Shown here: one piece after another, positions 1 through 33,188 of the stretch
How the letters are laid out: each line of letters begins with the position of its first letter
Numbering within the stretch: the stretch's first letter is position 1
DNA from: Escherichia coli
Lineage (GTDB): Bacteria; Pseudomonadota; Gammaproteobacteria; Enterobacterales; Enterobacteriaceae
Strand: one strand, 5' to 3'
Assembly (NCBI RefSeq): GCF_024700885.2
Contig: NZ_CP117016.1
DNA length: 64,000 bases
Position numbers and translations under genes: made by a program
Notes under the pieces: generated by a model
What the model was told of the DNA's origin: nothing
Databases searched by the model: none
What the model saw: only the letters and a program-made list of their open reading frames with translations

Positions 1-214
1 CTTCGTGCAGTTCCATCTCTCCGGTGGCGAGCATCACAGCAAAATCTGGCGTATAGAACGTGTTGTCAGCTAACCGCAGCTTGATACCCTCGAATCGATA
101 CCAGGCGATTTCCCCTGCACGTTTACGCTGCTCAAGGTGCTGGCAATACGCAGATTCTGTTTTGTTCATCTGGCCTGTTTTGAGTCGACCAAGAGCCTGC
201 ATCTGTTTTCTCAT
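1..214 (-). CDS. Phage protein, 5' part only (runs off window); DUF1064-like PD-(D/E)XK-type fold suspected
   Basis: Reverse-strand ORF starting ATG at 212-214 with GAGGT SD 7 nt upstream; translation MRKQMQALGRLKTGQMNKTESAYCQHLEQRKRAGEIAWYRFEGIKLRLADNTFYTPDF...; sits directly downstream of P-like gene in same orientation. Confidence 0.45.
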   Translation of the reverse strand, partial: MRKQMQALGRLKTGQMNKTESAYCQHLEQRKRAGEIAWYRFEGIKLRLADNTFYTPDFAVMLATGEMELHE

Positions 215-279
215 GATTTACCTCTGAGGTAATTAAAAACCACATAAGACACGAAATCAATAGAGTTTAGAATATTTTA

Positions 280-294
280 TTACCTGATGGGTAA
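280..294. promoter_or_regulatory. Operator-like palindrome TTACCTGATGGGTAA
   Basis: Perfect TTACC-N5-GGTAA dyad in intergenic space between P-like gene and downstream ORF; same motif recurs in the immunity region. Confidence 0.35.
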
Positions 295-331
295 TTATTT
301 GAGCGTAAAAAAATGCGCTATCGCGCTGGTA

Positions 332-1132
332 TTACTTGATAAATCCTGCCGCCTTTCCCCGCCTGTATTCCTCCATCAGCCACTGCGCCGGTGTTATTCC
401 CCCAAGGGTGGCGGCGTTAGGCATGCATCCGAAACTTCGCCCTGGTGGATGGTAAACGTCTCTCCCTGTGTCCGGAGGTGTACTCATGGGCTCTGGCTTT
501 GCCTGTATGCTGATCACCGGATCGGGTATCTGCTGTCCGGAAGCCACCTTTTTCGCCCAATCATCGAGCAGCCTGCGCGCGTGTTTCTCAACCTCAATCT
601 CGCTAAGCTGGCGCTGATACATTGCACGGCGGGTATCACATACGACCCAGTACATAACCGGATGTCGCCACGGGAATCTTTCGGGACCACCAGGATATAA
701 ACTTTTTTCCTTGCTGTACCGGTGAAACTCCGCCATCACATCGTCAATGGTGACGCCAAGAACCATCTTGCTGTCTTTACACCACTTGATGAATTGCCCA
801 GGCGACGGCCAGAACGGAGATTCACTGGCGCGGGCGTGGCGCATACCAGCAGAAACCTGTTCACGGGTTCGGATCCCCCCTTCGGCAAACGCAGCAATCC
901 ACTGCTGTTTTGCAGCTACTTCCTGCCCTGGCGTCTTCAGGTTGGTTACCACTGCCGCCGGAAACAGTTGTTTCAGCTGTTTGAAAAGGGCATCAACAAG
1001 CCTCTCTGCTGACATGTTAACCACATTGTCATTGTTGACGTACTGATGCTCATAACCTGACATGCGAGAAAGGGCTTCTCCGTCACGGTTTTGTATCGCG
1101 GTAAAAACGTTGTTCACAAGAAATCCTCCCAT
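332..1132 (-). CDS. Lambda P-like replication protein (helicase loader)
   Basis: 266 aa ORF; segment PFWPSPGQFIKWCKD and FPAAV region parallel lambda P (PFLPSPGQFVAWCRE) as remembered; overlaps 3' end of O-like gene by 19 nt. Confidence 0.8.
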   Translation of the reverse strand: MGGFLVNNVFTAIQNRDGEALSRMSGYEHQYVNNDNVVNMSAERLVDALFKQLKQLFPAAVVTNLKTPGQEVAAKQQWIAAFAEGGIRTREQVSAGMRHARASESPFWPSPGQFIKWCKDSKMVLGVTIDDVMAEFHRYSKEKSLYPGGPERFPWRHPVMYWVVCDTRRAMYQRQLSEIEVEKHARRLLDDWAKKVASGQQIPDPVISIQAKPEPMSTPPDTGRDVYHPPGRSFGCMPNAATLGGITPAQWLMEEYRRGKAAGFIK

Positions 1133-1929
1133 GCTTCAGGGCTGTTCCAGTGCGGAACGTTGTTATCAGGTAATGTTGATTGCTTCTGTCTGCTAATCTG
1201 CAGCCGCCTTGCCAGCTTCTGCTCCCACTGTGCCTGATGGTATGCCTTACCCTCAGCCATCCAGTAAATTCTGAACTCTGCAAGTTCCTGTGCCGTTGGC
1301 AGACTGTCCAGGTAGATCCCCTGCAATGAGCTTTTCCGAAGAAAGTCATCTGATGGCTGCCATTGTTCATGCATGACAAATTTTCCTAATTGCCCTGGTC
1401 CACCAGGAGGAACAAAGTTATTCATCACGGCGTTGTTTGCTCCGGGGTCATGAGGCACAGAATCCCCGCTTTTTGTCCTGCTCTCCCTCTCTTGGTTAAA
1501 TGACTGGTTATATGACTGGTTCTGGATCCCGTTTTTGGGATCATTCAACATCCCGTTTTTGGGATCATTCAACATCCCGTTTTTGGGTATATTCCCGTTT
1601 TCGGGAACATTACCGTTTTCGGGTTCATTACGTCCTTCTAGGTTGCCTTTAATGTTCCCTTTTTTGGTTATATTAAGAGAGAAAACCCGCACTCTTTTCG
1701 TCGCTCCCTTTCTCTCTCCGGTATCTGAAATAAGCCCCATTTTCATGAGCGATATAAGCCCGGCCTGCACGGTTTTTTTATTCAGGCAAGTGTCTTTAAC
1801 GAGGCGTTCTATGCTGGGGTAGCAGAGGTTATATTCATCGGCTCTGTCAGCCATCGAGAGCAGTATGAGCTTTAATGACGAGCTACCTGGATCTGTCTCC
1901 CAGGCCCAATCTGTTGCATGTCTGCTCAT
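1114..1929 (-). CDS. Lambda O-like replication initiator with internal iterons
   Basis: 271 aa ORF with GGAGA SD; N-terminal HTH-like region; central repetitive linker (NGNVPENGNIPKNGMLNDPKNGMLNDPKNG) encoded by tandem DNA repeats; immediately upstream of P-like gene. Confidence 0.7.
   Translation of the reverse strand: MSRHATDWAWETDPGSSSLKLILLSMADRADEYNLCYPSIERLVKDTCLNKKTVQAGLISLMKMGLISDTGERKGATKRVRVFSLNITKKGNIKGNLEGRNEPENGNVPENGNIPKNGMLNDPKNGMLNDPKNGIQNQSYNQSFNQERESRTKSGDSVPHDPGANNAVMNNFVPPGGPGQLGKFVMHEQWQPSDDFLRKSSLQGIYLDSLPTAQELAEFRIYWMAEGKAYHQAQWEQKLARRLQISRQKQSTLPDNNVPHWNSPEAWEDFL
1526..1630. repeat. Iteron array (putative phage replication origin) inside O-like gene
   Basis: Two exact 24-bp tandem units ATCCCGTTTTTGGGATCATTCAAC (1526-1549, 1550-1573) followed by three degenerate units; core dyad CCCGTTTT(T/C)GGG occurs 5 times at 24/24/18/18 bp spacing; TGACTGGTT x2 at 1501-1522. 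Confidence 0.6.
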
Positions 1930-1944
1930 GATTAATCTCCGCTA

Positions 1945-2145
1945 TCAGCTTGAATGTTGTGGGGAGGAATTAATCATGATCTGCTTAATCTCAGCCCTGA
2001 TGCGACGGTTTGATTCCATGGTGCACTCAACACAGTGTCCGTTGTAAACCCAGCGTTCACTGTCATGTCCGTGCTTACATGGTTTTCCGGTGTAGTAGCG
2101 TTTAAGTCCGCGCTTTGCGGCATCAATACGTGTAATGATTTCCAT
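1945..2145 (-). CDS. Small zinc-ribbon-like phage protein (occupies cII position); start uncertain (ORF open to 2214)
   Basis: ORF with CxxH...CxxC pattern (YTGKPCKHGH...GHCVEC); located between Cro-like gene and O-like gene. Confidence 0.4.
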   Translation of the reverse strand: MEIITRIDAAKRGLKRYYTGKPCKHGHDSERWVYNGHCVECTMESNRRIRAEIKQIMINSSPQHSS

Positions 2146-2249
2146 GGTAAGCCCTGTTATTAGTATTGGGATTACGGTCATTTTGTGCTGACACAAAAAA
2201 AAGATCAACCACATTTGGTTTTTTATTACCCTTAAGGTGCGAATAGATA

Positions 2250-2274
2250 TGAAAAGACCGCCGGATGGCGGTCT
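2250..2274 (-). terminator. Intrinsic terminator downstream of Cro-like gene (tR1-like position)
   Basis: Reverse strand hairpin AGACCGCC-atcc-GGCGGTCT followed by TTTTC. Confidence 0.5.
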
Positions 2275-2295
2275 ACAGAGGGTTGTGGCTGGATA

Positions 2296-2526
2296 TCATG
2301 AGTAGAAGAAGTATGCCAATTCTGCTTTTGAGCGCAGCCATTGTCTTGTTTTACAGGCTTTAAAAAGCCCATTCATCAATACCTTACCTGGCATTTTGCG
2401 CTTACCTGTTAAGTGAGTCTGGATATAGTGACTCGTCGTTCCGGCTTCCTGTGCGAAGGCTTCACGCTCATCCGGAGTAAGTGCAAGCCAGTGCTTTTTG
2501 AAATCGAAATGTCCGTTATCGCTCAT
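2296..2526 (-). CDS. Cro/DicC-like small DNA-binding protein (putative)
   Basis: 76 aa ORF divergent from repressor gene across operator-containing intergenic region; weak SD. Confidence 0.5.
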   Translation of the reverse strand: MSDNGHFDFKKHWLALTPDEREAFAQEAGTTSHYIQTHLTGKRKMPGKVLMNGLFKACKTRQWLRSKAELAYFFYS

Positions 2527-2562
2527 AGCTATTGCCTGATATTTATTTCAGATAATAAATAT

Positions 2563-2625
2563 TCACCCATAAGGTAACAAAAATCAAGGATAGTTACCCA
2601 TGAGGTGCATTTACCTGTTGGGTAA
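2563..2625. promoter_or_regulatory. OR-like operator cluster (three TTACC-N5-GGTAA-type dyads) in divergent repressor/cro intergenic region
   Basis: TCACCCATAAGGTAA (2563-2577), TTACCCATGAGGTGC (2594-2608), TTACCTGTTGGGTAA (2611-2625). Confidence 0.55.
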
Positions 2626-2680
2626 TATTGCTTTAAATTGAATCATCTTCTGATTCATATATGAGGCGATTTTCCAGAAA

Positions 2681-3265
2681 ATGAAAAGTATCCAAGACGT
2701 CCGCAGGCAAAATCTCAACGACTTGATCGACCGTGAATTCAATGGTGTTCAGACGCGGATGGCTGAAAAACTTGGAACTCAGGCAAATCTGGTAAACCGC
2801 TGGGCTCTTGGCAAGAAGGTTATCGGCGACCAGGTTGCGCGAAAAATTGAAGCTGCCGCCAATAAACCACGTAACTGGCTTGATATCGATCGCTCGCTTT
2901 CTCAGGAGGGTTTTCAGCCTGTCGGACCAAGCGACATTGGTCAGCTGGCGGCTCACAACCTGGAACGCTGGATGAGCGAAAGCCGCGACCTTTCAACACA
3001 GGGAAAACTTCACCGCGCATCCGGCGTCGCCCAAGTGACAATCAGCCGCCTGTTAAACAATGAGGTCAGCGTTTCCATTTCCACCCTGGAGAATGTTGCA
3101 TCTGCATTCGGACGTCACGGATATGAACTACTGATTCACCCGCACGACCCTGCAACTATCAACTATGACCGCTCGCGCTACGCATTGTTACCTGAAACCG
3201 AGAAAGCAAAGATCGAAAGTTACATTGAATTTGTCATCAACCAGAACGAAAAAAACAAACAATAA
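2681..3265 (+). CDS. Prophage repressor-like protein with two HTH (XRE-type) domains; no S24 peptidase domain evident
   Basis: 194 aa ORF; two segments with HTH-like pattern (MAEKLGTQANLVNRWALGKK... and ASGVAQVTISRLLNNEVSVSISTLENVASAFG); divergent from Cro-like gene; followed by terminator. Confidence 0.6.
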   Translation: MKSIQDVRRQNLNDLIDREFNGVQTRMAEKLGTQANLVNRWALGKKVIGDQVARKIEAAANKPRNWLDIDRSLSQEGFQPVGPSDIGQLAAHNLERWMSESRDLSTQGKLHRASGVAQVTISRLLNNEVSVSISTLENVASAFGRHGYELLIHPHDPATINYDRSRYALLPETEKAKIESYIEFVINQNEKNKQ

Positions 3266-3285
3266 AATCATATTTTTCAGTAAGT

Positions 3286-3312
3286 AAGCCGCCAAATGGC
3301 GGCTTTTTTATT
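3286..3312 (+). terminator. Intrinsic terminator after repressor gene
   Basis: AAGCCGCC-aaat-GGCGGCTTTTTTATT. Confidence 0.6.
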
Positions 3313-3313
3313 G

Positions 3314-3390
3314 TCTATTTAATTACCTTGCAGGTAATTTTTTCAACTCATACCTATTGACATCAAACCAAATACGCATAATCATTACCT
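3314..3390 (+). promoter_or_regulatory. OL-like operator pair flanking candidate early promoter
   Basis: Perfect dyads TTACCTTGCAGGTAA (3314-3328) and TTACCTCAACGGTAA (3376-3390) bracket TTGACA (3348-3353) and a CATAAT-like -10; directly upstream of rightward early operon. Confidence 0.5.
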
Positions 3391-3418
3391 CAACGGTAAC
3401 AAGCTGAGGTAACAAGTT

Positions 3419-3571
3419 ATGCAGTGGAAAATCATCAACGGTTGGTACTGCGTTACTGCATGCGGATTCATGAGCTGGAAGTTCCGCACCTTACAGGAAG
3501 GCATTAAGTGGGCTTTCGTCAGCAAAGAAGCTCGCGATGTGGCCAACGATAACGAGATATGGGAGGGCTGA
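3419..3571 (+). CDS. Small hypothetical protein (50 aa), first ORF of early rightward operon
   Basis: ATG preceded by GAGGTAA SD; MQWKIINGWYCVTACGFMSWKFRTLQEGIKWAFVSKEARDVANDNEIWEG; not in ORF track (below length cut-off). Confidence 0.35.
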   Translation: MQWKIINGWYCVTACGFMSWKFRTLQEGIKWAFVSKEARDVANDNEIWEG

Positions 3572-3573
3572 TA

Positions 3574-3873
3574 ATGAACGTTAATCAGCAGCAAAATCTT
3601 CAAAAAATCATGCTGGCATTCGACAAGGACTACCGCCTGTCAGAACAGCTATATGACCGACAAGTTGAACTGATCGAAAGCATCCGGCTTCATCAACTAG
3701 CCTCAACTTTCGACGCTGTAACAGGTAAAGGCGTTCGCCAGGAAGTACTGGAGGCCGCTAAAGACAGTCCAGAGTTCGAAGAACTGATGGATTCCTACCG
3801 GCGCGAGGCAATGGCAATTATCGCCCGCTGGGATCTGGCTGATCAGCTTGATGGGCAGAGGGACGCGGCATGA
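3574..3873 (+). CDS. Hypothetical phage protein (99 aa)
   Basis: ATG at 3574 with GGAGGG SD 8 nt upstream (track start 3559 lacks SD); stop overlaps next gene start (ATGA). Confidence 0.55.
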   Translation: MNVNQQQNLQKIMLAFDKDYRLSEQLYDRQVELIESIRLHQLASTFDAVTGKGVRQEVLEAAKDSPEFEELMDSYRREAMAIIARWDLADQLDGQRDAA

Positions 3874-4691
3874 AGCCGGGAATTTATTTCGACATCAGCA
3901 ACGAAGACTACCACGCCGGGGACGGCGTGAGTAAGTCGCAACTGGACATGGTTGCCAAGAATCCGGCGCTTCTTAAATGGGTTCAGGCAGCACCAGAAGA
4001 CGAAGAGAAAAAGTCTGCACTGGATATGGGAACCGCATTGCACTGTCTGCTTCTGGAGCCTGGAGAATTCAACAAACGCTTCATTGTTTCACCGAAATTC
4101 GATCGTCGGACGAAACAAGGTAAAGCTGACGAAGAAGCATTTCTTCGTGATGTAGCGGATATGGGGATTACGGTACTTGATGCCGAGCAGTGGCGGAAAC
4201 TGGAGCTGATGCGTGATAGCGCAATGGCTCACCCGGCGGCACGCTGGATGCTGGAAGCACCTGGTTACTGCGAAGCATCAATGTACTGGAATGATGAAGA
4301 GACTGGTGAGTTGTGCCGCATTCGTCCAGACAAATGGCTGAACGAGCACAACGTGATCGTCGACGTGAAAAAGGTTGCAGATATGGACCGTTTTGCACGC
4401 CACATCGAGGAATTCCGCTACCACGTGCAGGACGCAATGTACCGCGAAGGAGCGATGAGGGTTACTGGTCAGTCGCATGGTTTTTTCTTTCTTGCCGTGA
4501 GCGAAAGCATTGATTGTGGTCGGTATCCGGTACGCGTGTTCGAGCTGGATGCGCCGGATGTCGATGCCGGGCACGCTCTGTTCCGCCGGGATCTGAATAC
4601 CTATCACGAATGCCGCATCAATGATGAATGGGGCGGCGTGGAAATTATTAAACGCCCTGACTGGGCACGTAAACAGGATATGTACGTATGA
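3870..4691 (+). CDS. PD-(D/E)XK-family phage exonuclease-like protein
   Basis: 273 aa; D...IVDVKK-type nuclease motif; translationally coupled to flanking genes. Confidence 0.6.
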   Translation: MKPGIYFDISNEDYHAGDGVSKSQLDMVAKNPALLKWVQAAPEDEEKKSALDMGTALHCLLLEPGEFNKRFIVSPKFDRRTKQGKADEEAFLRDVADMGITVLDAEQWRKLELMRDSAMAHPAARWMLEAPGYCEASMYWNDEETGELCRIRPDKWLNEHNVIVDVKKVADMDRFARHIEEFRYHVQDAMYREGAMRVTGQSHGFFFLAVSESIDCGRYPVRVFELDAPDVDAGHALFRRDLNTYHECRINDEWGGVEIIKRPDWARKQDMYV

Positions 4692-5569
4692 GCAATGATA
4701 TCGCAATCACATCACAACCAGGCGCAACTGTAGGTACTGCTGCGGCAATCTTCAGCCCGGAGGGCATGAATCAACTGGTGCGTTTCGCGGAGTTGATGTC
4801 ACAAAGCAAAGCGACTGTACCGAAACATCTTGAAGGCAAACCTGCCGATTGTCTGGCGGTGACCATGCAGGCGGCACAGTGGGGAATGAACCCTTTCGCC
4901 GTGGCGCAGAAAACGCATGTGGTAAACGGAACGTTAGGCTACGAAGCACAGTTGGTAAACGCGGTCGTATCCTCTTCCAGCCTGCTAGCGACACGCCTGA
5001 ATTATCGCTGGAGCGGTGACTGGTCGAATGTTAACGGCAAAACAGATAAATCACCGAATCTGACGGTAACTGTGTCAGCAGTTCTTAAAGGAGAAGCAGA
5101 ACCCCGTGAGCTTACCATCAGTATGGCGCAAGCCGGAGTGCGTAACTCTCCATTGTGGGAACAGGATCCGCGCCAGCAGCTTGCCTATCTTTGCACGAAA
5201 CGATGGGCTCGCCTGCACGCTCCTGATGTACTTCTCGGTGTTTACACCCCTGACGAATTACAGGAAACGGCACCGCGCGTTGAGCGAGACATTACTCCGC
5301 AAACGACTACTGCTGCGGGAATGAACAGTCTGATCAACGCTAAACCAGTGAAAAAGCCTGATGAGCAAACGCGTAAAGCGGATAGCCGTGATCCAGAAGA
5401 AATGCTGATGGCCTTTACCAGCGCAGCGATGAATTACAGCACTGTCTCCGAACTGGATAAGGCTTACAAATACATTGCACAAAAACTTTCAGATGATGAC
5501 GAACTGCTGGCAAAAGCCACCGACGTTTACAGCGTTCGTCGGGAAGAATTAAACGAAACATCTATGTAA
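4688..5569 (+). CDS. Putative single-strand annealing recombination protein (RecT/Bet-like); family assignment tentative
   Basis: 293 aa ORF start-stop overlapping the exonuclease gene (ATGA), the typical exo/SSAP arrangement. Confidence 0.4.
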   Translation: MSNDIAITSQPGATVGTAAAIFSPEGMNQLVRFAELMSQSKATVPKHLEGKPADCLAVTMQAAQWGMNPFAVAQKTHVVNGTLGYEAQLVNAVVSSSSLLATRLNYRWSGDWSNVNGKTDKSPNLTVTVSAVLKGEAEPRELTISMAQAGVRNSPLWEQDPRQQLAYLCTKRWARLHAPDVLLGVYTPDELQETAPRVERDITPQTTTAAGMNSLINAKPVKKPDEQTRKADSRDPEEMLMAFTSAAMNYSTVSELDKAYKYIAQKLSDDDELLAKATDVYSVRREELNETSM

Positions 5570-5618
5570 CCACCACCGCGGCGCCACGCGCGCCGCACTG
5601 CAACCAAGAGAGGTATTT

Positions 5619-5867
5619 ATGAAAGGTGCATTAGGTAAGAAGGAACTCCTGGCGGTGGTGCCACTGTCATGGAGCACTATCGACCGTATGGAGCGCGCAG
5701 GGGAATTTCCTAAACGCTGGTATATCACCGATAAACGCTGCGCATGGAACCGTGATGAAGTTGAGCGTTGGCTTGATGAACGTCAGGCAGCAAGCCCGGC
5801 AGAGTTCCAGGGTAAAAAACCTCCTGTTCAGCAACGTGTATATCGTCCTGTGAGCAACGCGGCATGA
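5619..5867 (+). CDS. AlpA-family phage transcriptional regulator / excisionase-like protein
   Basis: 82 aa; pattern LSWSTIDRMERAGEFPKRWYI...WNRDEVERWL typical of AlpA-type HTH; AGAGAGG SD. Confidence 0.7.
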   Translation: MKGALGKKELLAVVPLSWSTIDRMERAGEFPKRWYITDKRCAWNRDEVERWLDERQAASPAEFQGKKPPVQQRVYRPVSNAA

Positions 5868-5976
5868 GTGTGCTGCTAAGGCACTGGAGCAAATGGTCAG
5901 GATGGTACTTATTCCTGGCCTCTGTTTCAGCATGGCTTTATCTGCTGGCATTAATTTTCAGAGAGGGTTGGATTAA

Positions 5977-6276
5977 GTGAGAAAGTTAAGCCGACTTGAA
6001 AAATATCACATGAACAAGGTTTCAATGCGCAGCCCTTCAAAGGTTGTTGCCGTTACTCCTGCGGCGATAGAGATCGAAAAACGCGCGATTGAAAGAGAGA
6101 AAAAAGGGCAGTTCCGCATTGCCGCCCACCTTTGGCTTCAGTGTATGGATGTTGCTTCTGGTGATGTTGAACGTGCAAGGATCGCGGTTCGCAGGGACCA
6201 ATGTATCACAAAAGGTAACGGCCTTCGCCGTGGCGACTATAGCGGCATAGGATGTTGTGGGGTGGTTTATGACTAA
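5977..6276 (+). CDS. PerC-like small regulator (putative); GTG start
   Basis: 99 aa; RIAAHLWLQCMDV...DVERARIAVRRDQCI resembles PerC-family pattern; GAGGGT SD before GTG 5977. Confidence 0.4.
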   Translation: MRKLSRLEKYHMNKVSMRSPSKVVAVTPAAIEIEKRAIEREKKGQFRIAAHLWLQCMDVASGDVERARIAVRRDQCITKGNGLRRGDYSGIGCCGVVYD

Positions 6277-6919
6277 GAAATACACACTAATCTATGCAGA
6301 TCCACCCTGGGCATACCGGGACAAAGCCACAGATGGTAATCGCGGTGCCGGTTTTAAATATCCGGTTATGAGTGTGCTGGATATCTGCCGCCTTCCTGTG
6401 TGGGATTTGGCCGGTGAAAACTGTCTGTTGGCCATGTGGTGGGTGCCAACACAACCACTCGAAGCACTAAAAGTTGTTGAAGCCTGGGGATTCCGTCTGA
6501 TGACCATGAAGGGCTTCACGTGGATAAAATGTGGTAGTCGACAACCAGATAAACTGGTTATGGGGATGGGACACATGACTCGCGCCAACAGTGAAGATTG
6601 CCTGTTTGCGGTAAAGGGAAAACTACCTCCGCGCATTAATGCAGGTATCGTTCAGTCATTTACCGCACCGCGGCTTGAGCATTCAAGAAAACCAGATGTC
6701 GTTCGTGAAAAACTTGTGCAATTGTTAGGCGATGTTTCTCGCATTGAACTGTTCGCCCGCCAGTCGTCTCATGGCTTCGATGTTTGGGGTAATCAGTGCG
6801 AAGACCCGGCAGTGCAACTACACCCAGGATACGCGTTGGATATTGCCGGATTAACAAATGCATTCAGCAATGCTCCGCTGTCACCAACAGACAACCAGGG
6901 GCGGGAGCGTGCAGCATGA
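6269..6919 (+). CDS. MT-A70 family DNA N6-adenine methyltransferase
   Basis: DPPW catalytic motif (LIYADPPWAY); ATG 6269 preferred over GTG 6257; stop overlaps next ORF. Confidence 0.75.
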   Translation: MTKKYTLIYADPPWAYRDKATDGNRGAGFKYPVMSVLDICRLPVWDLAGENCLLAMWWVPTQPLEALKVVEAWGFRLMTMKGFTWIKCGSRQPDKLVMGMGHMTRANSEDCLFAVKGKLPPRINAGIVQSFTAPRLEHSRKPDVVREKLVQLLGDVSRIELFARQSSHGFDVWGNQCEDPAVQLHPGYALDIAGLTNAFSNAPLSPTDNQGRERAA

Positions 6920-7110
6920 ACAGGGCATCACCAGCAGATTTAAGGAAATGCCTTGAAACTGCAAACATGCTTGCACACAGCGGGATCAGGTTTGTTCCAA
7001 TTCCCGCTGTCACTGATGCTGAATTTGCAACACTGTCAGCAATATTCACAGATAAAATTGAATCACTGGCAGCAGAAGCCGAGATGGAAGAAAATCAGCA
7101 GAACTATTAA
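6916..7110 (+). CDS. Small hypothetical phage protein (64 aa)
   Basis: ATG overlapping MTase stop (ATGA); MNRASPADLRKCLETANMLAHSGIRFVPIP...; convergent with integrase. Confidence 0.4.
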   Translation: MNRASPADLRKCLETANMLAHSGIRFVPIPAVTDAEFATLSAIFTDKIESLAAEAEMEENQQNY

Positions 7111-7113
7111 ACG

Positions 7114-8364
7114 TTATTCCCCCGCCATCCACTTCTCAAACTTCGACGGGGAGAACGGAATCAGATCCGTATGCTCCCCGTTAATCCAGGAATCAATCAT
7201 ATCGGCCCACTGCTGCAACATGTAGGCGCGCTGTCTGGCGTATTCCGCTTTGTTATATACGGCGCGCACACCTTTCTGCTCATGTGCCAGAGCCTTTTCA
7301 ATCCAGTCTGAAGGATAACCAGCCTCATGCAACAACGTACTGGCTGTACGGCGCATATCGTGTACGGTGAAGTCCTGAATATGCTCACCATCTTCATTTA
7401 TTATTTTCACCGTTCTGTCGATCAGAGAGTTCAGCGCGGCATTAGATAATGGCTTCCGGAAATTGTAACGACCAGGAACCAGATATTCACTTCCACCAGC
7501 GCACATCTGCAACCCGACCAATATATCCTGAACCTGTTTAGGCAGGTAAATAACATGCGCCCGGCTTCCCTTCATGCGGTCTGAAGGAATTGTCCATGTC
7601 CATTTTTTAAAATCTATTTCATCCCACGTTGCATTGGTGAATTCGCCCTTACGAACCATAGTGATAAGCACCAGTTTTAAAGCCATTTTCATAGTGCCCA
7701 TAGCACCAATGGCATCCAACGTGCGGAAGAACAGGCCAATTTCTTCTGGTGTCAGTGTTCGCTCTCGTGGTTTAAATATGGCGATAGACGAAGGTTTAAT
7801 GTCAGCCGCAGGATTAAACAAACCATGACCACGGTCATTGGCGTGACGGTATACGCTGCTGATGATCTCCCTGGCCTGTACTGCTGTTGCCCGACCACCG
7901 CGTTCGACAATCCGGTCACACAAATCACGAACCATCGATGTGGTAATTTCAGCCATCATTTTGTTGCCAAGAACCGGAAGTATGTCACGGTCGATCACCG
8001 CCTGCTTCATTGCGCGGGTACTGTCAGCCAGGATGACGTGTTTCATATAACTGTCGGTATGTACCGCAAACGTCTCGGCACCACGAATTTTTTTGATACC
8101 GTCACGTTTAGCCGCAGCCGGCGACTGGCCTGCTTTAAGCAGCTTCTTTGCAGCAATCAGTTCTTCTCGCGCTTCTGCCAGGCTGATACCGTCACGCCCA
8201 TACTGCCCGATTACCAGTGTTTCGCGGCGACCGTTGATACGGTAGTCATAGCGAAACGAGACCGTGCCTGACGTAAGCACAGCTACATACAGCCCGTCAC
8301 GATCGGAGACCTTGTACAGTTTGTCCTGCGGCTTGAGGTTTTTTAATTTTGTATCGGTAAGCAC
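7114..8364 (-). CDS. int: Tyrosine site-specific integrase (P4-type)
   Basis: 416 aa; N-terminal MLTDTKLKNLKP typical of P4-like integrases; R..H..R..Y catalytic region near C-terminus (HDMRRTASTLL, AHEQKGVRAVYNKAEY). Confidence 0.9.
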   Translation of the reverse strand: MLTDTKLKNLKPQDKLYKVSDRDGLYVAVLTSGTVSFRYDYRINGRRETLVIGQYGRDGISLAEAREELIAAKKLLKAGQSPAAAKRDGIKKIRGAETFAVHTDSYMKHVILADSTRAMKQAVIDRDILPVLGNKMMAEITTSMVRDLCDRIVERGGRATAVQAREIISSVYRHANDRGHGLFNPAADIKPSSIAIFKPRERTLTPEEIGLFFRTLDAIGAMGTMKMALKLVLITMVRKGEFTNATWDEIDFKKWTWTIPSDRMKGSRAHVIYLPKQVQDILVGLQMCAGGSEYLVPGRYNFRKPLSNAALNSLIDRTVKIINEDGEHIQDFTVHDMRRTASTLLHEAGYPSDWIEKALAHEQKGVRAVYNKAEYARQRAYMLQQWADMIDSWINGEHTDLIPFSPSKFEKWMAGE

Positions 8365-8392
8365 AATTCACCCGTATAGAAACCATTTTCAT

Positions 8393-8428
8393 GACGGTAT
8401 GAGAGTATACCTTTAAGGTAATACCGTC
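8393..8428. promoter_or_regulatory. Nested palindrome upstream of integrase start (candidate int operator or att-arm site)
   Basis: GACGGTAT...ATACCGTC outer inverted repeat enclosing TACCTTTAAGGTA, a near-copy of the TTACC-N5-GGTAA motif. Confidence 0.35.
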
Positions 8429-8480
8429 ACCTGTACCGCCGAAAAATATGGTGTAGAGTGAATAGAAATGAATACATAAA

Positions 8481-8510
8481 AACAAAAACCCCCTGCAAAA
8501 ACAGAGGGTT
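8481..8510 (-). terminator. Intrinsic terminator downstream of guaA
   Basis: Reverse strand CCCUCUG-UUUUU-CAGGGGG hairpin followed by UUUUUGUU. Confidence 0.55.
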
Positions 8511-8556
8511 GAGTTGGCATCTGAATAGGAATGATTTGCTATGAGTTAGCTGTTAA

Positions 8557-10134
8557 TCATTCCCACTCAATGGTAGCTGGCGGCTTGCCGCTGATGTCAT
8601 ACACCACGCGGGAAATACCGTTCACTTCATTGATAATGCGGTTGGAAACGCGACCGAGGAAATCGTACGGCAGATGCGCCCAGTGTGCGGTCATAAAGTC
8701 GATGGTTTCGACAGCACGCAGAGAAACAACCCAGTCATACTTACGACCATCGCCCATTACACCAACGGAACGTACCGGCAGGAAGACGGTGAACGCCTGG
8801 CTGACTTTGTCGTACAGGTCCGCTTTACGCAGTTCTTCAATAAAGATGGCGTCAGCACGGCGCAGCAGGTCGCAGTACTCTTTCTTCACTTCGCCCAGTA
8901 CACGAACGCCGAGGCCTGGTCCCGGGAACGGGTGACGGTACAGCATGTCGTACGGCAGGCCCAGCTCCAGACCAATCTTACGCACTTCGTCTTTGAACAG
9001 CTCTTTCAGCGGTTCAACCAGCCCCATCTTCATCTCTTTCGGCAGGCCGCCCACGTTGTGGTGAGATTTGATGACGTGTGCTTTACCGGTTGCAGACGCC
9101 GCAGATTCGATAACGTCAGGGTAGATAGTACCCTGCGCCAGCCACTTCACGTCTTCCAGTTTCAGCGCTTCTTCATCGAATACTTCAACGAAAACGCGCC
9201 CGATGATTTTACGTTTTGCTTCCGGATCGTTTTCGCCGGCCAACGCTGACAGGAAGCGATCTTCTGCCGGAACGTGAACAATGTTCAGACCAAAGTGATC
9301 GCCAAACATATCCAGAACCTGCTCTGCTTCGTTGAGACGCAGCAGGCCGTTGTCGACGAATACGCAAGTCAGGTTTTTACCGATAGCGCGGTGCAGCAGC
9401 ATTGCGGTTACGGAGGAATCCACACCACCAGAGAGGCCGAGGATGACTTTATCGTCGCCTACCTGCTCGCGGATGCGAGCTACAGCATCGTCGATAATTT
9501 TCGCTGGCGTCCACAGGGCTTCACACTGGCAGATATCTCGCACAAAGCGCTCCAGCATGCGCATACCCTGGCGGGTGTGAGTCACTTCCGGGTGGAACTG
9601 TACGCCATAGAAGCGTTTTTCTTCGTTAGCCATAATGGCAAACGGGCAGCTTTCGGTGCTGGCTACGGTGACGAAGTCGGACGGGATAGCGGTAACTTTA
9701 TCGCCGTGGCTCATCCAGACATCGAGCAGAGGTTTACCGTCTGCGGTCAGAGCATCTTCAATACCGCGAACCAGTGCGCTGTCGTTTACGACTTCAACCT
9801 GCGCGTAGCCAAATTCACGTTCGTTAGAGGCTTCAACGTGACCGCCCAACTGCATTGCCATGGTCTGCATGCCATAGCAAACGCCGAATACCGGTACGCC
9901 TGCTTCAAAAACATACTGCGGCGCACGCGGGCTGTTTTCTTCGGTGGTGCTTTCCGGGCCGCCGGAAAGAATAATGCCGCTTGGGTTGAAGTCACGAATT
10001 TGTGCTTCTGTCACATCCCACGCCCACAGTTCGCAGTAAACGCCCAGCTCACGCACGCGGCGCGCAACCAGTTGAGTATACTGGGAACCGAAGTCCAGAA
10101 TGAGGATGCGATGCTTATGAATGTTTTCCGTCAT
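8557..10134 (-). CDS. guaA: GMP synthase (glutamine-hydrolysing)
   Basis: 525 aa; C-terminus ...PPATIEWE; GATase and ATP-PPase motifs (SGGVDSS). Confidence 0.97.
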
Positions 10135-32411: not shown

Positions 32412-33188
32412 TTAGATTATCCGGTTCTGTTTAAAGTCACGCAAAAAACCACCCCAGCGACGTTCATAGAATGGCACAATATGTTCGGTAATAAAGTGGC
32501 TAATTCCTTTTTCCCCTTTTTTCACCTGACAAATATCGATGGGTTCATCGCCAGGTAATGTATCGGTCGCTACACTTCCCGCCGCCTGAATAATTTCTTC
32601 GATATCACCATCGGCTTCAATGCCAATAAGTAAATTAGGCTGTGCCTCTTCGTTCTCTTTAATTGAACAAATAAAAGCACGCTTCACCGGCTTAATAGTT
32701 TTAAATAAGGTGGTGAGTGAATCAATCATTTGTGCTGGTGGCTCTGCGACTTCCGATAATATCAGCGATTCACCGCCCTCCAGTACTTCCTGGCTGCTCA
32801 GCGGATTTCCTTCTTCACCAATCAACAAACTGATTTCACGCGGCATAAATTCTTTACCGGTTGGCAGTTTGGCATTAAGGAAGAGCGTTTCGCCAAGGGT
32901 CATCTCAAACAATGTGCGAACGGGCATTACGACAAATGCCTGTTCGTCTTCAACCGCCTGTTGAAGTGCTTCTAACGAGGTGAAAAAAGGAATGACGCTG
33001 GTGCCGTCTTCTTTTTCCCAGTGCTGTAAATCAAGCGCGCTATCTTCAACCACAGCCTCGCCCTGCGCCGCCGTACCAGGCACCCAGACGATGGATTCCA
33101 GTAGAGTACGGAAAAAGGCCGGGCGGTGCGCCGGTTCGGTTGCTGCTTTTTCCAGCAGGTCTTCAAGTTCATTTTTTGTTTCGGACAT
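32412..33188 (-). CDS. sseB: Protein SseB
   Basis: Start set to MSETKNELEDLL (track ORF 3 codons longer). Confidence 0.9.
   Translation of the reverse strand: MSETKNELEDLLEKAATEPAHRPAFFRTLLESIVWVPGTAAQGEAVVEDSALDLQHWEKEDGTSVIPFFTSLEALQQAVEDEQAFVVMPVRTLFEMTLGETLFLNAKLPTGKEFMPREISLLIGEEGNPLSSQEVLEGGESLILSEVAEPPAQMIDSLTTLFKTIKPVKRAFICSIKENEEAQPNLLIGIEADGDIEEIIQAAGSVATDTLPGDEPIDICQVKKGEKGISHFITEHIVPFYERRWGGFLRDFKQNRII

Follow-up and report, generated by a model that had tools for sequence, protein, structure and literature searches.

When a terminator stands between the cro-like gene of a prophage and its replication genes, and no N-like antiterminator is apparent, how do the replication genes come to be transcribed? 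In phage lambda, tR1/nutR is situated between cro and cII, and this terminator is overcome by the N protein. The window, meaning the whole stretch of 64,000 nucleotides of DNA analysed here, comes from the chromosome of Escherichia coli MLI114 and carries a phiV10-like (Uetakevirus) prophage. A preliminary description of it had placed a strong reverse-strand hairpin with a T-tract between the Cro-like gene and the zinc-ribbon/O/P genes, in the tR1 position, had judged the first ORFs of the opposite early operon not to resemble an Arg-rich N protein and had proposed that read-through into the replication genes may use a different mechanism.

The early region and the terminator after the cro-like gene

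The prophage is approximately 39 kb in length and, going by its annotated neighbourhood, is inserted at the 3' end of guaA. Positions 1-8500 match the MLI114 chromosome at 100% identity. Elements of this kind are common: of 5,426 complete E. coli genomes, about 460 carried at least 80% of positions 1-8500 at 95-99% identity. The early region shares 96.7% identity with that of Escherichia phage phiV10. More distant relatives are Enterobacter phages Tyrion and BUCT554, Salmonella phages epsilon15, SPN1S, SPC32H and PAT1, and several Klebsiella phages, and most of these phiV10/epsilon15-type relatives are classified in the genus Uetakevirus. The comparisons below employ ten relatives from the host genera Escherichia, Enterobacter, Salmonella and Klebsiella. 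The prophage also has the following features:

7114-8364: P4-type integrase
8555-8571: att core, ATTGAGTGGGAATGATT

Phage ZX5 has been reported with the same att core (PMC9782041); terminators are not treated in that paper.

The early region on either side of the divergent repressor and cro-like genes is arranged as follows:

2681..3265 (+): repressor gene, SPC32H-type Rep with two HTH domains (PDB 5d50_A, E 4e-42 over the full length; Pfam HTH_3)
2563-2577, 2594-2608 and 2611-2625: cluster of three operators overlapping the pR-like promoter (operator pattern matches)
2552..2580 (-): putative pR-like promoter of the cro-like gene, TTGTTA-17-TATTAT (promoter scan, 9/12 matches)
2296..2526 (-): cro-like gene encoding a 76-aa HTH protein, divergent from the repressor gene, with a TGA stop
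2275..2295 (-): spacer from stop codon to hairpin, UAUCCAGCCACAACCCUCUGU, C-rich and G-poor by base composition
1945..2145 (-): 66-aa Cys/His-rich ("zinc-ribbon") ORF, with which the replication operon begins (phrog_1081, of unknown function)
1929..1114 (-): O-like gene with HTH_36 and DnaT domains (Pfam)
1526-1631: iterons within the O-like gene (tandem repeats)
1132..332 (-): gene of the lambda P family (Pfam)

The 76-aa protein is called Cro-like because of its position, divergent from the repressor gene, and its match to phrog_35 ("transcriptional repressor", E 5.6e-13). No match to it was found in Pfam, NCBIfam or the PDB sequences; homologues are p41 of phiV10 and gp39 of epsilon15. The zinc-ribbon ORF that follows has homologues in epsilon15 (gp40) and phiV10 (p42). 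Neither it nor the two small proteins encoded first in the pL operon gave a match in Pfam or NCBIfam.

The terminator itself consists of two elements:

2274..2255 (-): hairpin AGACCGCC-AUCC-GGCGGUCU (stem-loop scan, folding, variants and phiV10 annotation)
2254..2245 (-): U-tract, UUUCAUAUCU / TTTCATATCT, directly 3' of the stem

The hairpin is as strong as had been described: the stem is a perfect 8 bp with six G-C pairs, closed by a loop of 4 nt, and has a folding energy on its own of about -14.5 kcal/mol. In a context of 66 nt the energy is -15.6 kcal/mol (z = -2.9), and an equally stable fold was obtained in none of 200 shuffles. The T-tract is present as well, with five U in the first eight positions and a TransTerm-style tail score of -3.9, but it is a short one, as UUUCAUAUCU and the stem-terminal U together supply only four consecutive U. 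The position is likewise that of lambda tR1, between the cro-like and the replication genes. The hairpin begins 21 nt past the TGA of the cro-like gene, inside an intergenic gap of 150 nt, and the Cys/His-rich ORF lies about 110 nt downstream of it. When a 181-nt segment of the transcript was folded, the hairpin appeared in both the MFE and the centroid structure; thus no alternative, antiterminating fold competes with it. As judged from its sequence, the element after the cro-like gene is a genuine terminator of the Rho-independent type and of an ordinary kind, termination being predicted at the hairpin from these features together with the conservation and geometry described below.

The terminator is not a new observation, since the phiV10 record (DQ126339.2) carries an identical sequence at positions 33078-33100, after PhiV10p41, and names it a "putative rho-independent terminator". 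All 23 nt (AGACCGCCATCCGGCGGTCTTTT) are the same there, as are the position and the orientation between the p41 and p42 homologues. Nothing of substance differs; downstream, SNPs are found in the operator, which reads GCACCTTAAGGGTAA here and GTACCTCAAAGGTAA in phiV10. The record also marks terminators behind two further genes, the repressor gene and gene P. The phiV10 terminator annotation is itself a prediction only. The prophage family is a well-sampled one, and the post-cro terminator was essentially already known.

Putative repressor-gated cassettes and a candidate promoter for the replication genes

Rep is a full-length homologue of the SPC32H repressor, and the prophage also encodes a full-length homologue of the SPC32H antirepressor Ant (5d50_E, E 3.3e-47). 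Rep has been described to bind palindromic sites as a tetramer (PMC9638917). Exact matches to the palindrome TTACC-N5-GGTAA number five in the 64-kb window; every one is intergenic and within the first 3.4 kb, in the immunity and replication regions. Allowing at most one mismatch, phiV10 has 15 sites, and each of them falls either in intergenic DNA, which makes up 6.5% of the genome, or in the terS 5' end, which is doubtful. These sites precede terS, the portal gene, ant, the tail fibre, lysis genes, int, pL, pR/pRM and the DUF1064 gene, and one of them (one mismatch) is located directly after the post-cro terminator. In the epsilon15 record (AY150271.2), the same palindromes are entered as "repressor" protein_bind features ahead of many operons. 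The prophage belongs to the SPC32H/epsilon15 Rep-Ant immunity system, with which it shares both the full-length Rep and Ant homologues and the operator sequence. The epsilon15 record differs in having neither a repressor site nor a terminator in the gp39-gp40 gap, where the U-tract is absent.

Two cassettes of the prophage serve as a reference for the way in which such operators are combined with promoters:

3286..3399 (+): pL cassette, with the rep terminator at 3286-3305 and operators at 3323-3337 and 3385-3399
3357-3362 and 3380-3385 (+): pL promoter, TTGACA-17-AATCAT
218..325 (-): P/DUF1064 cassette, ahead of the DUF1064 gene, with operators at 280-294 and 218-232 (exact operator matches)
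260..255 and 237..232 (-): P/DUF1064 promoter, TTGATT-17-TTTAAT
325..314 and 312..306 (-): weak terminator after P, GCGCGAUAGCGC followed by U7 (a terminator is annotated here in phiV10)

At both pL and the post-P junction, two perfect operators situated 62-63 bp apart bracket a good sigma70 promoter, and this holds for ten of ten phages. From the first operator to the start of the -35 element there are 34-35 bp, and the -10 element runs into the second operator. A terminator stands ahead of each of the two cassettes.

The most conserved non-coding block among the ten relatives, which come from four host genera, is found just downstream of the post-cro hairpin. GGTAAT, GGTTGATC, a T-run and AAAAT are all part of it, and it can be read as an operator, nnACC-N5-GGTAA, followed by TTGATC-N15-17-CAAAAT:

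2226..2240: operator-like palindrome TTACCCTTAAGGTGC (plus strand; operator pattern), the proposed upstream Rep operator O1
2203..2208 (-): candidate -35, TTGATC, with CCAAATGTGG directly before it at 2218..2209; invariant in ten relatives
2180..2185 (-): candidate -10, CAAAAT, its AAAAT core invariant in ten relatives

O1 deviates from TTACC-N5-GGTAA at two positions here and at one in phiV10. Its half-sites are fixed and its centre is variable, in nine of ten relatives (one or two mismatches) and in the IMG/VR variants. The candidate -10 leads directly into an operator half-site, TGACC at 2180..2176, and the replication-operon transcript is predicted to start near 2173 on the minus strand. 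The layout of terminator, O1, a distance of about 32-34 bp, -35, 17 nt, -10 and TACC matches that of pL and of the P/DUF1064 junction, and the post-cro gap, on this comparison of sequence layouts, is a weaker copy of the terminator/operator/promoter/operator cassette found in those two places.

The spacer between TTGATC and CAAAAT is 15-17 nt in length and is wholly divergent in sequence among the ten relatives. TTGATC-16/17-CAAAAT, or a register of it, was the best or joint-best sigma70-like match in the gap in all ten phages (7-8/12). The IMG/VR variants place a mosaic breakpoint exactly at GGTTGATC / TTGATC. Beyond it, the downstream genes belong to one of two unrelated modules, and in each the TTGATC and CAAAAT hexamers persist, separated by 16- or 17-nt spacers that are entirely different. 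Hexamers that are kept across a breakpoint with unrelated spacers are what would be expected if the -35/-10 pair is functional, and we regard this as the strongest single piece of evidence that the replication genes may have a promoter of their own.

On balance, we consider it probable that the terminator ends the transcript of the cro-like gene made from pR, that the replication genes possess their own, Rep-gated promoter and that no N-like factor is needed. The Rho-independent terminator would close a short, essentially monocistronic pR transcript that encodes the cro-like protein only. The zinc-ribbon, O and P genes would owe most of their transcription to a weak sigma70 promoter of their own (TTGATC-17-CAAAAT), 50-90 bp downstream of the hairpin, and the SPC32H-type Rep would gate this promoter through the operator at 2226-2240. 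The terminator would then insulate one repressor-gated cassette from the next, and inactivation of Rep by Ant would allow all cassettes to fire in parallel. Cassettes that have their own promoters and fire in parallel would require no N-like antiterminator. Some passive read-through is also to be expected, because the U-tract is short. Both promoter activity and Rep binding at the post-cro site are predictions. In the literature covered, which did not extend to the primary SPC32H and epsilon15 papers, this junction has no reported transcription start or RNA 3' end, and neither Rep footprinting nor expression of it is described.

The most serious competitor, which we consider unlikely, is a leaky terminator or attenuator. 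The replication genes would be expressed chiefly by passive read-through from pR, with the hairpin setting a ratio of high cro to low O/P, and the conserved block would be a looping or roadblock operator with no promoter. Partial read-through is made plausible by the short U-tract (four consecutive U, tail score -3.9). The candidate promoter is also weak, as it agrees with the consensus at only 8 of 12 positions, has a C at -12 and falls below the threshold of the promoter scan. The second operator, about 60 bp downstream, is degenerate: only a TGACC/TTACC half-site is present, and a near-full site is found in BUCT554 alone. The offset from O1 to the -35 is 32 bp here, shorter than the 34 bp found both at pL and at the P/DUF1064 promoter. 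Owing to the weak promoter, the mismatches in O1, the half-site and this offset, the block could be a looping operator, or a site for some other protein, and not a promoter. Against this reading stand the -35/-10 spacing, which is fixed across the mosaic breakpoint although both the spacers and the downstream genes are unrelated, the retention of the hexamers across four host genera, and a cassette geometry that copies that of pL and of the P/DUF1064 promoter.

A promoter belonging to the replication genes themselves, the reading we prefer, bears directly on the proposal of a different read-through mechanism. Since the 110 nt that follow the hairpin carry a conserved operator and a conserved -35/-10 pair, the replication genes most likely have their own promoter, and a special mechanism of read-through is probably unnecessary. 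A concept of this kind is in common with phage N15, in which the CB repressor gates a separate replication-gene promoter at repA. There, too, the replication genes have a repressor-controlled promoter of their own, independent of antiterminated read-through from pR, whereas the repressor and replication proteins of the two phages are unrelated.

As a by-product, a testable picture of the wiring of these prophages is obtained, in which promoter cassettes, insulated by terminators, would each be flanked by Rep operators (at two junctions the distance is 62 bp). Upstream regions with operators are found for the cro-like gene, the replication genes, the DUF1064/RuvC module, terS, the portal gene, the tail fibre, lysis genes and int. 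If true, this would amount to a parallel, repressor-gated programme instead of an antitermination cascade of the lambda style. If confirmed, it would aid the annotation of the common guaA-integrated prophages and would explain why searches for N and Q return nothing.

Several other motifs near the junction were considered and set aside. A plus-strand, pRE-like promoter (TCTACA-16-TATCAT, 2272-2299) was found on inspection to be unconserved in Tyrion and other relatives and is attributed to chance. The motif CCAWATRTGGTT is enriched in phiV10 (seven sites, about 1.3 expected, five of the seven intergenic). It was rejected as a second regulatory motif, as its seventh base is fully variable at the junction (C28, A7, G3, T1) and its distance to the candidate -10 elements is inconsistent. 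Readings of the conserved block as a DnaA box or an IHF site were also discarded, these being unconserved by eye.

Variation of the hairpin among natural variants and relatives

A scan of IMG/VR with the cro-like protein returned 80 loci, all of which encode a 100% identical protein, with 49 unique downstream sequences; such a set is informative on intergenic variation but unsuited to deep covariation analysis. Among the 39 unique variants that are in register (a collection of modest diversity), no stem pair is broken. Three stem positions vary, all of them in the 5' arm and all by C to U or A to G. These changes keep a G.U pair in the rightward transcript and would create A.C mismatches in RNA of the opposite strand, which points to selection on the RNA hairpin in the pR transcript. 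The loop is free to vary (AUCC, ACCC and ACUC), and one of the ten positions of the U-tract is variable in this set.

The same terminator was identified in Tyrion and BUCT554. In the Salmonella and Klebsiella relatives, a hairpin of 6-8 bp, GCCG(C/U)C...GGCGGC, is retained at the same place, and the sixth stem pair is exchanged from A-U to G-C between the clades. There the hairpin is followed by UCCUUCCU or UCCUGCCU and not by a U-tract, and the tail scores are -2.6 to -2.8. Since the U-tract is absent from these relatives, the conserved function of the hairpin may exceed intrinsic termination alone. A transcriptional stop after the cro-like gene seems to have been conserved throughout the group; its mechanism is predicted to be intrinsic in the E. 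coli/Enterobacter clade and is possibly Rho-assisted elsewhere.

The flanks of the hairpin also have a distinctive composition. Outside the stem, the segment after the stop codon has 33% C and 11% G here, and 33-47% C and 3-11% G in ten of ten relatives. The C-G skew of the flanks ranks in the top 1.6% of genome windows in phiV10 and in the top 0.3% in epsilon15, although a similar skew is common in coding-antisense windows. In lambda, tR1 is a Rho-dependent terminator with a rut/hairpin/rut layout, and its hairpin (boxB) is the binding site of N. The element described here resembles tR1 in two respects: no other terminator lies between it and the cro-type gene of the rightward early operon, with the replication genes following further downstream, and its hairpin stands between C-rich, G-poor RNA flanks. 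It differs in being a canonical intrinsic terminator with a candidate promoter behind it.

It is conceivable on these grounds, but distinctly improbable, that the hairpin forms part of a Rho-dependent terminator of the rut/hairpin/rut type, or a stabiliser of the mRNA 3' end, and that the U-tract is a secondary development in the E. coli/Enterobacter clade. The retention of the hairpin without a U-tract in Salmonella and Klebsiella phages, the exchange of the sixth pair and the composition of the flanks would all agree with this. In the clade of the window, on the other hand, the hairpin and its nearly invariant U-tract are those of a usual intrinsic terminator. Furthermore, the C-rich stretch outside the stem, at only about 45 nt, is short for a rut site, and many coding-antisense windows are equally skewed.

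Antitermination functions and the chance occurrence of terminators

The small early proteins were checked for RNA-binding motifs, and the earlier judgement on the first ORFs of the pL operon holds. These ORFs (3419-3571 and 3574-3873) belong to phrog_898 and phrog_856, both of unknown function, and lack an Arg-rich motif, with at most three to four R+K in any window of 18 aa. In the pR and pL transcripts no boxA (CGCUCUUA / GCUCUUUA) was found apart from one core match with a single mismatch inside the cro-like coding sequence, and no boxB-type hairpin with a GNRNA loop. An Rfam search of positions 1-9000 at a permissive threshold returned only sub-threshold matches, located on the rep terminator. 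No match to an HK022-type put RNA was obtained from Rfam in the same interval, although Rfam may hold no put model. The only stable structure in the folded segments of the transcript was the single terminator hairpin. The lambda N/nut module thus differs from the present locus, where boxA, a boxB with a GNRNA loop and N were all not found.

The search was extended to the small proteins of the entire prophage, including the part that lies outside the window, where an N or Q homologue might have been encoded. PHROG, Pfam, NCBIfam, PDB and fold screens assigned none of them to an N, Q or other antiterminator family, and no protein of the prophage matched a Q family in PHROG, Pfam or NCBIfam. The view that no N-like antiterminator is recognisable can therefore be widened to the whole prophage and to Q. 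In keeping with this, no antiterminator is annotated in the curated records of phiV10 and epsilon15.

One protein merited closer attention by its position. Encoded just upstream of terS is a 112-aa protein, Arg/Ala-rich and Cys-rich, which is a homologue of epsilon15 gp49. It belongs to phrog_536 ("transcriptional regulator") and has 724 homologues, all "hypothetical"; no Pfam domain and no PDB sequence match were identified. Its AlphaFold model is of low confidence (pLDDT 65) and returned only noise in a Foldseek comparison with the PDB. Although the gp49-like protein sits in the position of Q, a role as a Q analogue has no sequence, domain or fold support; given the low confidence of the model, a very distant kinship with Q is conceivable. 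Its gene is downstream of the terminators, which excludes the protein as an explanation of early read-through.

In our estimation it is very unlikely that pR transcripts are carried past this and later terminators by active, processive antitermination, whether through a cis-acting RNA or through a phage factor that has escaped recognition. Candidates would be the 66-aa zinc-ribbon protein, a PerC-like activator, the Arg-/Cys-rich gp49-like protein and a put-like RNA. Such a system would account for the presence of at least four same-strand terminators between the modules from pR to terS, and for the gp49/terS junction, at which a terminator and two operators occur with no recognisable -35. It might also give a role to several small conserved proteins of unknown function. 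Opposed to it are the lack of any N, Q, Nun, boxA or boxB-like element, the empty Rfam search, the lack of a fold that competes with the terminator, the location of the gp49-like gene downstream of the terminators, so that its product cannot act early, and the operator-bearing upstream region ahead of every module. A specific version of the same idea has equally long odds against it: the C-rich RNA, the GCCGCC...GGCGGC hairpin and the second C-rich RNA after the cro-like gene, a unit kept even by the relatives that have no U-tract, would be recognised by an antitermination or termination-control system of a kind so far overlooked, with the zinc-ribbon or gp49-like protein as its factor, and pR transcripts would pass the four or more same-strand terminators and reach the late genes without N or Q.

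That the hairpin is a functionless inverted repeat of chance origin is scarcely credible: weak terminator-like hits are indeed no commoner than in shuffled sequence, but chance would supply only about 0.05 hits of this quality per 9 kb, and the hairpin is correctly oriented, follows a stop codon by 21 nt and keeps its pairing in all variants and relatives. A generic terminator scan identified 11 terminators where 9.2 were expected from shuffles, with no overall enrichment. When at least eight pairs, at least six G-C pairs and at least five T in eight positions were demanded, on both strands, 0.047 high-quality terminators were expected per 9 kb and two were observed. These two are positioned directly after the stop codons of the divergent repressor and cro-like genes.

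Predicted Rep operators at promoters and at the integrase gene

Two perfect TTACC-N5-GGTAA palindromes, predicted operators of the SPC32H-type repressor Rep, were identified at each of two junctions in the phages compared (10/10), namely at pL, the leftward early promoter after rep, and following gene P. The start-to-start distance within each pair is 62-63 bp. In the ten phages, each pair encloses -35 and -10 elements, and the -10 directly adjoins the second operator. This spacing around a promoter fits a model in which one Rep tetramer would clamp each promoter.

Operator pairs and operator-like site in the window
3323-3399, operator pair at the pL junction (equivalent junction in relatives L002-L010)
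218-294, operator pair at the junction after gene P (equivalent junction in L002-L010)
8407-8421, operator-like site ATACCTTTAAGGTAA with one mismatch, upstream of the integrase gene

The ATACCTTTAAGGTAA site falls in the interval from int (8364) to the att core (8555-8571). Its position upstream of int, with a counterpart in phiV10 (26870), suggests that int could also be gated by Rep.

Intergenic region after the cro-like gene

Among the IMG/VR loci encoding an identical cro-like protein (L014-L093), a mosaic recombination breakpoint occurs exactly at GGTTGATC in the post-cro intergenic region (corresponding to window 2203-2210). Downstream of it lies either the Zn-ribbon/O/P set, as in the window, or a TL-2011b-type replication module starting with TTGAAGATAGTAACC.

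The post-cro hairpin is retained in Salmonella and Klebsiella relatives without a U-tract (L002, L005, L007-L010, intergenic region after gp39), where its flanks are very C-rich and G-poor (up to 47% C, 5% G). This arrangement is reminiscent of lambda tR1, with its order rut / hairpin / rut, and by this analogy suggests Rho-dependent termination after gp39 in these relatives.

WATRTGGTT motif and the gp49-like protein

The motif WATRTGGTT is present in seven copies in phiV10 versus approximately 1.3 expected. Five of the seven are intergenic; all of these point the way transcription runs, and a Rep operator lies upstream of each. Ahead of the portal, tail-fibre and lysis genes the spacing TGGTT-N7-TA(A/T)(T/A)A(A/G/T) is seen. 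WATRTGGTT may be a late-activator site. At the junction between the cro-like and Zn-ribbon genes the seventh base of the motif is not conserved.

WATRTGGTT sites, and off-window features at terS
phiV10 3310, 20923, 24741, 33137 and 35118, WATRTGGTT sites
Window 2207-2218 and 238-246, WATRTGGTT-motif positions
L001 16563-16901, minus strand, 112-aa homologue of epsilon15 gp49, directly upstream of terS
L001 16444-16562, gp49/terS junction: hairpin GCCGCC-AACUAU-GGCGGC, then UUUGUUUUG, then two operators

The gp49-like protein belongs to phrog_536 ('transcriptional regulator'). Its N-terminus is rich in Arg and Ala (AKSAAERKAAQRARQAAS), and it carries a conserved cluster of Cys residues, CGKCGG...CPCNGDSQC. 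Its 724 homologues are each labelled 'hypothetical', and Pfam, PDB and fold searches gave no match. A role as a late regulator is possible.

No recognisable -35 was found at the gp49/terS junction. The two operators there, 18 bp apart, fall within the annotated 5' end of terS, and terS of epsilon15 is 78 nt shorter; the terS start in phiV10 and RefSeq has thus probably been called ~26 codons too early.

Further prophage features

Iteron-like tandem repeats are located within the O-like replication gene (window 1526-1631), consisting of 2.6 copies of the 24-bp unit ATCCCGTTTTTGGGATCATTCAAC followed by 3.1 copies of an 18-bp unit. By comparison with lambda O, they are a likely origin of replication. 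Off-window (L094 4831-5416), the prophage encodes a small antirepressor of the SPC32H type (85 aa; 5d50_E, E 3e-47). The prophage lacks the Bro-domain 'anti-immunity' gene p23 of phiV10; instead, that neighbourhood holds an ORF of 98 aa and unknown function (phrog_3075). A tRNA-Arg gene is also annotated within the prophage, off-window (L001 13570-13646), between the terminase and portal modules, with the late genes on the other strand.
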